The notes under the pieces are model-generated. The model worked only from the letters and a program-made list of their open reading frames with translations, ran no database searches and was not told the DNA's origin. Below are positions 32,124 to 37,532 of a stretch of DNA of 64,000 nt, piece after piece. Source of the stretch: a phage; NCBI GenBank assembly GCA_022897995.1, contig GCA_022897995.1_4763.1. One strand, written 5' to 3'. The number at the start of each line of letters is the position of its first letter. Position 1 is the stretch's first letter. Made by a program: the position numbers and the translations under genes.

Positions 32124-32138
32124 GAGGTTAATAACATC

Positions 32139-32693
32139 ATGAAACGGTATTGTGATGAACATCCAGAAGAATGGAAAGACCTTGTTTATATGGGCGTATC
32201 GTATCCAGAATATGAAATTAGTTCTTATGGTAAACTAAGAAATAAAGCCACTGGCAAGGTCAGATCAACTAAAATAACAAAAGGTTATGTCTCTTGTAAT
32301 ATCAGAGATTACGCCAACAGAACAAAGTCAGGCAAGCCAAAGACCGTCGGCGTTTATATTCATAGGGCATTAGCAGAAGCATTTATACCAAATCCAAACA
32401 ACTACCCTGTAGTAAATCACAAATTTGGTGATAAAAAAGATTTTGATCTGTATGGCCTTGAGTGGACAACACAAAGAGAAAATCTTATACACGCTAAAGA
32501 AGAAGGATTGAACAAAAACTATGGAGAAACACACGGAAACGCAAAGTTAACTGACCATCAAGTAGAAGAGATCAGGTCTAAACAGGGTGTTGCGTCTGTA
32601 AAAGAACTTGCTGTAATATACGGAGTGCACACGATAACCATAAGAAGAATATGGAAGAGTCAGACCAGAACATCACGATATAAAGAGAGGTGA
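32139..32693 (+). CDS. free-standing HNH endonuclease (NUMOD4-HNH family)
   Basis: YEISSYGKLRN (NUMOD4-like) then HRALAEAFIPNP...VNHKFGDKKD...LEWTTQREN HNH_3-type core. Confidence 0.75.
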   Translation: MKRYCDEHPEEWKDLVYMGVSYPEYEISSYGKLRNKATGKVRSTKITKGYVSCNIRDYANRTKSGKPKTVGVYIHRALAEAFIPNPNNYPVVNHKFGDKKDFDLYGLEWTTQRENLIHAKEEGLNKNYGETHGNAKLTDHQVEEIRSKQGVASVKELAVIYGVHTITIRRIWKSQTRTSRYKER

Positions 32694-32697
32694 TATT

Positions 32698-33726
32698 ATG
32701 ATATACTACGCAGATTGTGAGATTGCAGAGAAGGCGATATATGGTGAGAGAAACTTTAAACGCCTACACACTCAATCATTTACATTGGTATGCTCATGTC
32801 CGATCTGCGGAGATTCCAAAAAGAATAGCACAATGGCGCGTTTCAGAATCTACACTTATAAAGACTCGTTACGTGCATCGTGTTTCAACTGTAACTATAA
32901 TCAACCGTTAGGTGAATTTCTCAAACAGTATAAGCCGGACCTATTCAGGGAATGGCTTATGGAACGAAGGAAGGAACAAGGCGACCACAAGAACACCACG
33001 TTCAAGCCACTGAAAAAGGTAGAAAAGCCGGAGATTAAGAAAGTGCAAACATTGCCTTTCTGCGAGAGATTAGATACTCTTCCGGCTAATCATCCTATAA
33101 TAAAGTATGTCAGTGATCGCTGTATTCCTCACGATAAATGGGATCTTCTGTATTTCACGAGAGAATGGCAAAAGGTAGCAAATCACATTAAGGCGGATAC
33201 TTTCAAGAATCCACAACCTGAACCGCGTTTAGTGATTCCTATCTTTAACCGCGAGAACAAGATAGAATCCATTCAGGGGCGAGCATTGAGAAAGGATTAC
33301 GGAAAGACCAAATATATGACGATTAAAACTCATGAGTTAGCGAGTAAGGTCTATGGTCTTGAACGCGCCGATCCGAGTAAACCAGTGTATTTCTTAGAAG
33401 GTCCGATCGATTCATTGTTTATTGATAACGGGTGTGCAATTACTGGCGGTACTTTGGGATTAGATGAAATCCCTTTCCCAGACCAGCGAGTGTTTGTACT
33501 TGATGCGGAACCACGGTCTGCCGATACAATGCACCGACTGGAAAAGTTTATCAATGCAGGGGAAAAGATTGTTTTGTGGGACCGTTGCCCGTGGCATTCT
33601 AAAGACGTTAACGCCATGATTCAGGACGAGGGCGCTACACGCGACCAGATCATGGAATATATCAAAGAGAACACCGTACAAGGTCTGATGGCTAAAATGC
33701 GGTTTATGAAATATTGTAAATTTTAA
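32698..33726 (+). CDS. 61: DNA primase gp61
   Basis: 342 aa as T4 gp61; N-terminal zinc ribbon CSCPICGDSKKN...CFNC and TOPRIM-like FLEGPIDSLF. Confidence 0.85.
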   Translation: MIYYADCEIAEKAIYGERNFKRLHTQSFTLVCSCPICGDSKKNSTMARFRIYTYKDSLRASCFNCNYNQPLGEFLKQYKPDLFREWLMERRKEQGDHKNTTFKPLKKVEKPEIKKVQTLPFCERLDTLPANHPIIKYVSDRCIPHDKWDLLYFTREWQKVANHIKADTFKNPQPEPRLVIPIFNRENKIESIQGRALRKDYGKTKYMTIKTHELASKVYGLERADPSKPVYFLEGPIDSLFIDNGCAITGGTLGLDEIPFPDQRVFVLDAEPRSADTMHRLEKFINAGEKIVLWDRCPWHSKDVNAMIQDEGATRDQIMEYIKENTVQGLMAKMRFMKYCKF

Positions 33727-33740
33727 TTAATGAGGTGAAT

Positions 33741-34259
33741 ATGTCAGAATTTAATTCTTGTGCTGGTCTGGTTAACGAAAAAGATATTAACGCGGCTATC
33801 GCCGCATATCATCACGCGATTGCAGAAGGTAAAGATCCGTTTCAGGTGATGCTAGAAATGCAAACTGGTTTGCAGGTTGCACTATCCGAAAAATTTGATT
33901 GGGTCCCAAATCCAACTAAGCTAGAGACTTGCGGTGAAATGCTGGATTGGATGCAACGGATGGATGACGCTATCGCAGACGAAACACGAGAGCTTTACAC
34001 ATCGCTGGGTGGAATGTCCAATGGTAAAGATGCAAGTGCAATCTGGAAAATGTGGAAAAAGAACCACGGGGAAGCGCGAGCGCGTAAATTCTCTGAACTG
34101 TCACCAGAAGATCAGCTTGAAGTGAAATTTGAATTTGTGGACGCGATCCACTTCATTCTGTCAAAGATGATCCCGCTGGGTATTAACGCTCAAGAACTCT
34201 TTATTCTGTACTATCTGAAAAATGCTGAAAACTTCGCCCGTCAAGAACGCGGCTACTAA
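33741..34259 (+). CDS. 56: gp56-like dCTPase/dUTPase (MazG-like all-alpha NTP pyrophosphatase)
   Basis: 172 aa; MSEFNSCAGL...DPFQVMLEMQ...KLETCGEM...ILYYLKNAENFARQERGY resembles remembered T4 gp56; adjacent to gene 61. Confidence 0.55.
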   Translation: MSEFNSCAGLVNEKDINAAIAAYHHAIAEGKDPFQVMLEMQTGLQVALSEKFDWVPNPTKLETCGEMLDWMQRMDDAIADETRELYTSLGGMSNGKDASAIWKMWKKNHGEARARKFSELSPEDQLEVKFEFVDAIHFILSKMIPLGINAQELFILYYLKNAENFARQERGY

Positions 34260-34266
34260 AAATTAG

Positions 34267-34320
34267 TTGACGCTACTCTATAATGGTTTTATTATGCCTC
34301 CCGTCGAAAGATTGGAGGCT
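34267..34320 (+). promoter_or_regulatory. early promoter plus 5'-UTR hairpin that includes the Shine-Dalgarno
   Basis: TTGACG 34267-34272, 17-nt spacer, TATTAT 34290-34295; GCCTCC...GGAGGC hairpin 34296-34320 then TTTTTTATT ATG. Confidence 0.45.
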
Positions 34321-34328
34321 TTTTTATT

Positions 34329-34832
34329 ATGCAATTTACACCAGAAGAACTTAACATCATTGATGAAGTGATGAACTCTAAAGAAAATATCGATATGTCG
34401 ATCCTTAATGGATTGATTGAAAAGACTGAGCGGTTAGTGCATCATGAAGCCTTGTATCGCGGTGTGAGCAAAAGAGAAGGCCGTAAGCTGGATACCTTAA
34501 TTGTAGGTGATTCTTTCGTTGTAGAGCGTCCTATGAGCTTTACGCCACTGCAATCAACAGCAGAGGACTTTGCAACCGATGTTTATGCAACAGGAAAGAT
34601 TATTGCAATAAAACCTACCAAGCCTTGCATGAATTATTACGAACATGCTATTGACCGAGTGGTGTCTAAAGAGTATGACAATCCGACTACTCGACTGTCT
34701 TTGTATGCTATGTTGGCAGATGAGCGCGAGTGCATATACAAGACAGGGACGACCATGATCCTTGATGAGATCGAGGAAGTTTACGCGTGTAACGGCGATC
34801 TGATAGAGATTTACAAATTTTCTTTAATTTAA
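34329..34832 (+). CDS. putative mono-ADP-ribosyltransferase (ModA/ModB-like R-S-ExE pattern)
   Basis: LYRG (Arg ~44), SFT/QST (~70-77), ERE (~132-134) at spacing typical of ART folds; sits where T4 has modA/modB near dda. Confidence 0.4.
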   Translation: MQFTPEELNIIDEVMNSKENIDMSILNGLIEKTERLVHHEALYRGVSKREGRKLDTLIVGDSFVVERPMSFTPLQSTAEDFATDVYATGKIIAIKPTKPCMNYYEHAIDRVVSKEYDNPTTRLSLYAMLADERECIYKTGTTMILDEIEEVYACNGDLIEIYKFSLI

Positions 34833-34835
34833 GTG

Positions 34836-34866
34836 TTGACAGCACAAACCAGATAGACAATAATAC
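34836..34866 (+). promoter_or_regulatory. sigma70-like early promoter
   Basis: TTGACA 34836-34841; A/T-rich -10 region about 17 nt downstream. Confidence 0.45.
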
Positions 34867-34893
34867 ACACATACCAACTAAGGAGAATCAATT

Positions 34894-35649
34894 ATGAAAC
34901 TGTTTGCTTTTAAATCTAACGAAGAATTGGCGCTGGTTGTTTTCCGGCTGAACTCTATCATGGCTGGTGCTTCACGTCGCAACAAAGACTTCTCTATGAG
35001 CTTAGTCACTGTGCGTAACATTTACCGTCAGACTCATTGCGCCTATTCCGGTGAGGCTTTCGGTGAAGGTGATGATGGACTCTCCTTAGAGCGCATTGAT
35101 TGCAATCTAGGATATGTTGATGGCAATGTAATTCCGGTTAAACTGAAATACAATTCTTTCCGTGGCAATCACACTATCGAATCTCTTAAAGAGATCCAGG
35201 AACTAGGAACTAACGGTAAACTTTCTGATGATGAAATTGCCCTACGTGCGAAGTACATCGAGTGGATCGAACTTAACGAGAATCGCATCAAAAATCAGGA
35301 AATAGCAATCGAAGAAAAGAAGTTAGCAATCGAGCGCCACAAAAAGCACAACGAACCGGAGAAAGCAGAGGCAGCCGAGCGAGCGATTAAAAATACTCTC
35401 TTCCGTATGGAAGAACGTTATCAGAAAATTGCAGATCTCAAGCAAGCCCTTAGCGAAATCAACAAGAAAGAAGAAAAACTTAAGGCTATTGCAAACAATA
35501 CCGAAATCGTGCTAAAATATACCAGCGTTTTGATTGAATCTCTTTCTAAGTATGAGAACTTAACGCCAGCACAAAAAGAACGCGTGAAATACGGGCTTCC
35601 GATTGATGCGTCGTGGATTGAATTGATGAAAGCGAAGGTAGGTTTATAA
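34894..35649 (+). CDS. hypothetical coiled-coil protein (at the srd position)
   Basis: 251 aa; N-domain with YSGEAF...LSLERID...GYVDGNV, long coiled coil; function not assigned. Confidence 0.35.
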   Translation: MKLFAFKSNEELALVVFRLNSIMAGASRRNKDFSMSLVTVRNIYRQTHCAYSGEAFGEGDDGLSLERIDCNLGYVDGNVIPVKLKYNSFRGNHTIESLKEIQELGTNGKLSDDEIALRAKYIEWIELNENRIKNQEIAIEEKKLAIERHKKHNEPEKAEAAERAIKNTLFRMEERYQKIADLKQALSEINKKEEKLKAIANNTEIVLKYTSVLIESLSKYENLTPAQKERVKYGLPIDASWIELMKAKVGL

Positions 35650-35963
35650 TGCATGTATTTGCTGTATGTTATCGTGATAAAGACGGATTCTTTCAATACT
35701 CAGTGGACGCGAAAGGTCGCGTCCTAACTTGCGAAACACATGATGCTGCGTTAGCGTCAATGTGTGATCAGATAGATTATTGTGAGAGTCTATTGGCGGG
35801 TGAACCGAAATACAAGGTTGTGCCTAAAAGAAAATTTGGTATAATCCGGTCTTCTGAAATTGTTCGGGATGGTATCGAATATAAAATTCCTGAATATGAA
35901 AAAGAACGGGTACGGCGAGAACTCAATACTATCTGTGTTCGCAAGGTGAGGATTTTAGGATAA
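35649..35963 (+). CDS. hypothetical protein
   Basis: 104-aa ORF overlapping neighbours, directly upstream of dda. Confidence 0.4.
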   Translation: MHVFAVCYRDKDGFFQYSVDAKGRVLTCETHDAALASMCDQIDYCESLLAGEPKYKVVPKRKFGIIRSSEIVRDGIEYKIPEYEKERVRRELNTICVRKVRILG

Positions 35964-37354
35964 TGAGCAGAGTATTAACTTTCGATATGTTAACAGACGG
36001 GCAAAAACATGCTTTTGATGTTCTAATGAAACGCATTGAACAAAAGAAGCATACAACTGTCCGTGGTGCGGCGGGTACTGGTAAAACCGCAATGATGAAA
36101 TTCATTGTTCAGGAAATGGTCCGCCGTGGTGTAACTGGTGTGGTTTTGGCAACGCCTACCCACCAGGCTAAAAAAGTTTTGAGTAAAGCGGTAGGTCGTC
36201 AAGCATTTACTTTACATGCACTACTGCGACTAAACCCGACCAACTATGAAGATACTCAAGTATTTGAGCAAAAAGATACTCCTAAGCTAGATGATGTTCA
36301 GATCATCATTGTTGATGAAGCGAGTATGGTCGATAAGAAACTATTTGATATTCTCATGAAGAGTATCAACGGTCGAATTGTTATTATTGCCGTGGGTGAT
36401 CTGTACCAGTTACGACCAGTTGATCCGAGCGGTGCAACGTCGATCTCTCCTTTCTTCACCGATGAAAGGTTTCAGAATGTAGAACTTACAGAGATTAAAC
36501 GATCTAATGCGCCAATAATTGATGTGGCGACCGCTGTCCGTAATGGTAAATGGGTATTCGAAAAGCAGTGCGGTAACGAGGGTGTATTCCATAGCTCAAC
36601 TCTGCCGGAGTTTATGAAGCATTATTTCGAAACCGTTAAAACGCCGGAAGACCTTCTAGAAAACCGTATTCTGGCCTACACTAACAAGAGCGTCGAAAAA
36701 CTCAATGAAATTGTACGTAAGCGCGTTTATAACACCGATGAACCAGTGATTGTAGATGAAATTCTGGTTACTCAGGAACCATTGATCGAATATCTGCGAG
36801 ATGAACGCGGGAAGAAGATCCCCAATGTTATTTTTAACAATGGTGAGATGATCCGAGTTAAAGAGGTCATCCCGCGTGAATTTACATTACGTTGCACGGG
36901 GGTAGATCCGCAACCAGTTTTAGGCTATACTCTGAAAGTGGAAAGCGTCGATGATGACGAAGACAAAGAAATCCTAAATCAGAAAGTCGGTTTAGATGCG
37001 GTCGGAATCACTACAGATAAACCAGATTTAGTAGAAATCAACATTCTGACAGAACAACGTCAGAAGAACATTTTCTCTATCTATCTGAATACGGTCGCCG
37101 GACAATATCGCGAAATGAAGAAAGAGAATCCAAAATTTAAACCAGATTGGGATTCATTCTGGACGATGAAGCGTATGTTCTTGAATGTAAAAGCATTACC
37201 AGCTTGCACCATTCATAAGTCACAAGGGATCAGCGTAGACCGCGTGTTCCTGTATACTCCTTGCATGTGTACAGACAATGTTGACTTTGAATTGGCAATG
37301 CAGTTATTATATGTGGGTGTTACCCGTGCGAGGTATCGAGTAGACTATATTTGA
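35963..37354 (+). CDS. dda: DNA helicase Dda (SF1B)
   Basis: FDMLTDGQKHAF, Walker A GAAGTGKT, LATPTHQAKKVL, IIVDEASMVD, YVGVTRAR match remembered T4 Dda. Confidence 0.9.
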   Translation: MSRVLTFDMLTDGQKHAFDVLMKRIEQKKHTTVRGAAGTGKTAMMKFIVQEMVRRGVTGVVLATPTHQAKKVLSKAVGRQAFTLHALLRLNPTNYEDTQVFEQKDTPKLDDVQIIIVDEASMVDKKLFDILMKSINGRIVIIAVGDLYQLRPVDPSGATSISPFFTDERFQNVELTEIKRSNAPIIDVATAVRNGKWVFEKQCGNEGVFHSSTLPEFMKHYFETVKTPEDLLENRILAYTNKSVEKLNEIVRKRVYNTDEPVIVDEILVTQEPLIEYLRDERGKKIPNVIFNNGEMIRVKEVIPREFTLRCTGVDPQPVLGYTLKVESVDDDEDKEILNQKVGLDAVGITTDKPDLVEINILTEQRQKNIFSIYLNTVAGQYREMKKENPKFKPDWDSFWTMKRMFLNVKALPACTIHKSQGISVDRVFLYTPCMCTDNVDFELAMQLLYVGVTRARYRVDYI

Positions 37355-37364
37355 GGAAATTATT

Positions 37365-37532
37365 ATGATTATGCGAAGTATCCCAGAATTTAATGATGTG
37401 ACGGTAAGCCGTCACAATGGAACTGTTACCATGTGCTTTAGATGGGGTCTATACGGCTGGAACGTGTCCGGCGATAGTGAAGCTGCATGTATCAATAAAA
37501 TGATCGAGCATTTCACTAAGCGAGGTTTTTGA
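37365..37532 (+). CDS. small hypothetical protein (55 aa)
   Basis: Ends ...ACINKMIEHFTKRGF; 3' end is copy 1 of a ~59-nt direct repeat. Confidence 0.3.
   Translation: MIMRSIPEFNDVTVSRHNGTVTMCFRWGLYGWNVSGDSEAACINKMIEHFTKRGF

Follow-up and report, generated by a model that had tools for sequence, protein, structure and literature searches.

An RB49-like phage carries a single short Mod-family gene that very probably encodes an arginine-specific mono-ADP-ribosyltransferase

The 64,000-nucleotide stretch of phage DNA analyzed here (contig GCA_022897995.1_4763.1 of GenBank assembly GCA_022897995.1; hereafter, the window) contains, at 34329..34832 on the plus strand, an open reading frame (ORF) with an ATG start that encodes a protein of 167 amino acids (aa). 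We are highly confident that this ORF, here called mod, encodes the sole Mod-family mono-ADP-ribosyltransferase of an RB49-like T-even phage (genus Krischvirus). By analogy with characterized relatives, its product is most likely an active, arginine-specific enzyme. The original prediction, made from the sequence alone, had proposed a candidate mono-ADP-ribosyltransferase, and this proposal is supported by homology, the predicted fold, conservation of the catalytic residues, and synteny with T4 modA and modB. We also computed that mod is under purifying selection.

34329..34832, plus strand: mod gene, predicted to encode a 167-aa Mod-family (R-S-ExE) mono-ADP-ribosyltransferase; "modB" in the RB49 annotation.

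By sequence match, the protein belongs to the T4-type Mod family (PF26816; PHROG 832), which already has its own Pfam entry and includes well-characterized enzymes from T4. PHROG 832, named "RNA polymerase ADP-ribosylase," matches residues 2 to 153 (E = 1e-20), and the PF26816 (Mod_ADP_RT) tag is precomputed for a 99%-identical cluster (P0001) and for every relative found. BLASTP against T4 ModB gave 33% identity over 113 aa (E = 8e-11), in an alignment that spans residues 2 to 113 and ends before the ExE region; against T4 ModA, it gave 23% identity over 159 residues (E = 2e-6) and spanned the ExE. A family hidden Markov model (HMM) scores the protein at E = 9.4e-47, a value that is partly circular because the underlying alignment contains the Mod protein itself. 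The family HMM found no second Mod paralog in the window (next best, E = 0.16). A word-indexed homolog search returned three close relatives only, and starting from an alignment that also took in T4, JS98, and other sequences brought the number to 11. Among PDB sequences, phmmer found no matches to the Mod protein, and the family profile gave marginal matches to Vis (E = 0.018) and XopAI (E = 0.09), which are not significant alone and were used for residue mapping. In the Vis match, LYRG pairs with AYRG, tSFS with TSTS, and E-k-E with E-A-E; in the XopAI match, E-k-E pairs with E-Q-E.

In the ExE enzymes of the R-S-ExE clade, the Arg and Ser hold NAD+, the second Glu is catalytic, and the first Glu directs transfer to arginine. 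The Mod protein carries L42-Y43-R44-G45, S70-F71-T72, Q75-S76-T77, and E132-R133-E134, with a further E-x-E at residues 147 to 149. The main motifs are encoded as follows.

34455..34463, plus strand: Y43-R44-G45 codons; aromatic-Arg motif on strand beta-1, with the predicted NAD-binding Arg.
34536..34544, plus strand: S70-F71-T72 codons; S-x-S/T (STS-equivalent) motif.
34722..34730, plus strand: E132-R133-E134 codons; ExE motif, at the ADP-ribosylating turn-turn (ARTT) loop position before a beta strand.

R44 and S70 are 26 residues apart, and S70 and E132 are 62 residues apart. When ten Mod proteins representing six genera, T4 ModA and ModB among them, are aligned, R44, G45, S70, E132, and E134 are invariant. 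An exhaustive profile search returned 147 representative clusters at E ≤ 0.001, and across 41 family members taken from it, R44, G45, E132, and E134 again do not vary, with S70 conserved in 90% or more. These patterns bear out the R-S-ExE order and spacing that had been predicted, together with the choice of LYRG (R44) as the aromatic-Arg motif and of ERE (132 to 134) as the E-x-E. For the Ser/Thr motif, SFT and QST had both been offered: SFT stands as the conserved S-x-S/T, whereas QST falls in a column that is not conserved, where S76 aligns with H105 of T4 ModB and N102 of T4 ModA. The T4 equivalents of R44, S70, E132, and E134 are R73, S99, E171, and E173 in ModB and R72, S96, E163, and E165 in ModA. 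R73 of T4 ModB is a validated catalytic Arg, as the R73A,G74A variant loses both ADP-ribosylation and RNAylation (PMC10468400).

By itself, the motif set is weak evidence: the loose pattern [FYWH]R..S.[ST]..E.E was satisfied by 3.1% of shuffles of the Mod protein, falling to 0.16% when G was required after R. The case therefore rests on homology and structure, and the motifs are significant because homology puts their residues in invariant columns. The ~3% frequency in shuffled sequences would be expected if the motifs had arisen by chance in an unrelated small phage protein, but this explanation is refuted by the significant ADP-ribosyltransferase (ART) homology and the fold match, and its probability is practically nil.

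The predicted fold matches R-S-ExE ADP-ribosyltransferases only; the original prediction had named an unrelated fold as the outcome that would count against it, and this outcome did not occur. The structure model covers the whole ART core with high confidence. Predicted strand 42-45 holds R44, strand 69-72 holds S70, and E132-x-E134 lies directly before strand 135-137, so that the protein has, on top of the predicted ART fold (a mixed alpha/beta core whose split beta-sheet forms the NAD cleft), the three hallmarks of the R-S-ExE (cholera-toxin-like/ARTC) class, namely, an aromatic-Arg motif on strand beta-1, an S-x-S/T strand, and a pre-strand E-x-E.

Several observations weigh against an active enzyme of this family. 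A local Pfam-A scan returned DUF5507 only (E = 0.13), with a Pfam copy that predates PF26816, and an NCBIfam scan gave no match for the Mod protein or for T4 ModA and ModB. No solved structure of a Mod-family protein was found, and the residue roles therefore rest on the predicted structure and alignment; nor did we find, in the searchable literature, a biochemical test of any Krischvirus Mod protein. The protein is 33 to 40 residues shorter than T4 ModA and ModB: it lacks the N-terminal ~30 residues, residue 2 aligning with approximately residue 31 of T4 ModB, and its loop before the ExE is shorter. At 167 aa, it does not have the ~190- to 210-aa architecture with an N-terminal helical extension, and since it is shorter than the T4 enzymes, its activity or targets could differ from theirs. 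In a neighbor-joining tree, the Krischvirus clade lies outside the T4 ModA and T4 ModB clades, on long, star-like branches.

The short form is genuine, because there is no in-frame start upstream and the upstream neighbor is gene 56. The tree groups the window protein with P0001-3, P0012, P0016, and P0021 in a clade of short proteins (161 to 176 aa), and the missing N-terminal extension is a subfamily difference rather than a family-defining one. Truncation relative to the characterized enzymes might also suggest that this ART-fold protein has lost catalysis or taken on another role, such as that of a binding decoy. This is very improbable: all catalytic-motif residues are kept and are invariant family-wide, including in the short clade, and the purifying selection on mod and the complete ART core of the confident model also argue for a working enzyme.

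Other R-S-ExE and related proteins are more distant from the Mod protein. Identity to the C2/C3/VIP2-like R-S-ExE toxins (VIP2 1qs1, Vis 4xzj, Certhrax 4fxq, CPILE-a 5gtt, and C3 exoenzymes) is 8 to 20%; these bacterial ART toxins often have extra domains and act after secretion or after delivery into eukaryotic or rival cells, whereas Mod is expected to stand alone as an early phage protein inside the infected cell. T4 Alt belongs to the R-S-E clade of the same ART superfamily (PMC9503650), and Alt-type proteins appear as weaker fold matches, at ranks 47 and 49. Alt, however, is a capsid-packaged protein of ~680 aa from the Alt/VIP2 family, not the Mod family (PMC9503650), whereas Mod would be a small, newly made early product. 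RB49 has a diverged putative alt gene (PMC1524935). Separately, several stretches within each of a number of large proteins of 1,500 to 7,000 aa (P0031, P0039, P0041, P0043, P0056, and others) match the Mod profile internally; these are probably ART domains of polyvalent or toxin proteins.

The genes around mod are as follows.

32698..33726: primase gp61.
33735..34259: dCTPase gp56.
34894..35649: Srd.
35649..35963: Dda.1/Y01A.
35963..37354: Dda helicase, 1.1 kb downstream of mod.

The order primase, dCTPase, mod, Srd, Y01A/Dda.1, Dda is shared with RB49, T4, JS98, and STP4-a. The original prediction had placed T4 ModA and ModB in the corresponding region near dda, and indeed T4 modB and modA lie between gene 56 and srd-dda. 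The T4 locus differs in having two mod genes (modB and then modA) and several small ORFs, whereas Krischvirus has one mod gene.

The region from 33700 to 37400 has matches in 77 phage records, and the best of them, all from RB49-like phages of the genus Krischvirus (Whisky, FL15, kaaroe, ECD7, and RB49), are 98.4 to 99.4% identical over the full length. The RB49 counterpart of mod is "modB" (AY343333; protein AAQ15305.1), which has the same amino acid sequence and differs by 3 synonymous codons; a 100% identical protein is present in ECD7, W115, Skers, and UPWr_E1. RB49 ModB and the identical Krischvirus proteins thus represent the same gene at the same site between gene 56 and srd, with no substantive difference. 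Labels vary among the records ("ModB ADP-ribosylase," "RNA polymerase ADP-ribosylase," "NAD--protein ADP-ribosyltransferase," and "ModA or ModB ADP-ribosyltransferase"), and in a few of them the ORF is a "hypothetical protein"; these annotations are similarity based. The gene is therefore an ordinary one, already known under an ADP-ribosylase label in RB49 as well as in dozens of related genomes, and beyond correct annotation the finding matters little. An opposite-strand ORF (34708..34872; 54 aa) was dismissed because of its position within the conserved mod gene and for lack of any support.

The two T4 enzymes have different targets: ModA acts on R265 of the RNA polymerase alpha subunit, and the substrates of ModB are S1, EF-Tu, and trigger factor (PMC3014915). 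T4 ModB also attaches NAD-capped RNAs to S1 and L2 (PMC10468400). T4 ModB (207 aa) shares both family and neighborhood with the window protein, is its best pairwise match in BLASTP (33% over 113 aa, E = 8e-11, versus 23%, E = 2e-6, for ModA), and has the same LYRG and SFT motifs; in addition, the RB49 gene is annotated modB. Mod could on these grounds be a functional orthologue of T4 ModB, one that would transfer ADP-ribose to S1, EF-Tu, and trigger factor and perhaps NAD-capped RNA to S1 and L2, a suggestion that we regard as possible but doubtful. The BLASTP alignment ends at residue 113, ahead of the ExE, and the full alignment gives identities of 27% to T4 ModB, 23% to T4 ModA, and 28% to JS98 ModA and JS98 ModB alike. 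Mod is also 40 residues shorter than T4 ModB, with a pre-ExE loop shorter by ~12 residues, and the star-like tree sets the Krischvirus clade apart from both T4 enzymes. From this separate clade and the near-equal identities, it follows that "modB" is a best-hit label, transferred by annotation.

T4 ModA (200 aa), a member of the same family, is 23% identical to Mod along an alignment of 159 residues that takes in the ExE, and both genes lie directly upstream of srd. This shared position, the presence of one mod gene in Krischvirus genomes versus two in T4, and the name of PHROG 832 would fit a protein that does the job of ModA, ADP-ribosylating Arg265 of RNA polymerase alpha, possibly along with ModB-like targets. 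The divergence of RB49 alt, together with early promoters that differ at a position thought to contact modified alpha (PMC1524935), points the same way. On the other hand, ModA is the most distant comparison: its clade shows the lowest identity (23%), and its signatures, LWRG and SAS, are absent from the Mod protein, which has LYRG and SFT instead. A ModA role for Mod therefore seems unlikely, although it deserves consideration.

Judged by sequence comparison, the Mod protein is not a clear orthologue of T4 ModA or ModB, so that its host targets may be that of ModA, those of ModB, or others. We tentatively entertain a further possibility, that a lone Mod enzyme of the short clade, orthologous to neither T4 enzyme, has its own target set. 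Such a set could unite RNA polymerase alpha and the translation-factor and RNAylation roles in one minimal enzyme, or it could include a different host protein. The single, minimal 167-aa Mod enzyme of Krischvirus phages is, as a modestly useful point, a compact candidate for probing the determinants of target choice and RNAylation ability in this family.

Whatever the targets, the activity, arginine specificity, and expression timing of an active Mod enzyme, as well as the proteins that it modifies, are matters that we infer by homology with T4 ModA and ModB and with structurally solved R-S-ExE enzymes. In the mechanism that we propose, mod would be transcribed early from its own sigma-70 promoter. 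Its product would bind NAD+ in the ART-fold cleft through R44 on strand beta-1 and S70 on the S-F-T strand; E134 of the E132-x-E134 loop would stabilize the oxocarbenium transition state, and E132 would confer specificity for arginine acceptors. ADP-ribose, or possibly 5'-NAD-capped RNA as with T4 ModB, would then be moved onto Arg residues of host proteins, and the modified transcription or translation proteins may aid takeover of the cell.

Two predicted elements that may bear on expression lie between gene 56 and mod.

34266..34295, plus strand: early-type sigma-70 promoter-like site, GTTGAC-N17-TATTAT, found by consensus scan (10/12 matches).
34296..34325, plus strand: GC-rich hairpin, GCCUCC-N12-GGAGGC followed by U6 (fold, -15 kcal/mol; z = -2.9).

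RB49 early promoters prefer G at -33 (PMC1524935), and the -35 element of the promoter-like site, GTTGAC, fits this preference. In diverged relatives, the -35 element is invariant and the -10 element is kept as TAT(T/G)AT. As a consensus match only, the site is in keeping with the early expression seen for T4 modA and modB. The Shine-Dalgarno sequence of mod, GGAGG, lies within the 3' arm of the hairpin, between the promoter and the start codon. A transcript starting ~7 nt past the -10 element would lose the 5' arm, leaving the ribosome-binding site free, whereas RNA reading through from gene 56 would fold into the hairpin, which would then terminate transcription, mask the ribosome-binding site, or do both. 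The hairpin is kept in two relatives, L007 and L008; in L008, whose protein is 63% identical, a compensatory change of T:A to C:G keeps the stem and spoils the GGAGG consensus. Conservation is far higher in the intergenic region upstream of mod than in the Mod protein. The 61 nt that separate mod from srd contain another early-type promoter-like site, GTTGACA-N17-AATAAT (34834-34864; 11/12 matches), and its presence suggests that each early gene here may have its own promoter.

Two neighboring genes show affinities to HNH endonucleases. The Srd homolog matches phrog_1400 (E = 1.5e-73) and, more weakly, the HNH endonuclease families phrog_3118 (E = 3e-12) and phrog_3322 (E = 1.4e-10), which hints that the "anti-sigma factor" Srd may be related to HNH-fold proteins. 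Farther upstream, an HNH/NUMOD4 endonuclease-like gene (32139..32693, plus strand; phrog_59, E = 1.5e-31; PF07463, E = 3e-07) sits between the RB49ORF017c homolog and primase gene 61, as a ~565-bp insertion (32134-32697) where RB49 has 10 nt. Over the first ~180 nt of gene 61 (32698-32880), identity to RB49 is 66 to 76% in DNA and 90 to 93% in protein, versus 97 to 100% in DNA over the rest of the gene. Mostly synonymous recoding of the primase gene beside an HNH gene is the usual signature of a homing endonuclease that has inserted next to a recoded target site, and it typically reflects either target-site immunity or a co-conversion tract.
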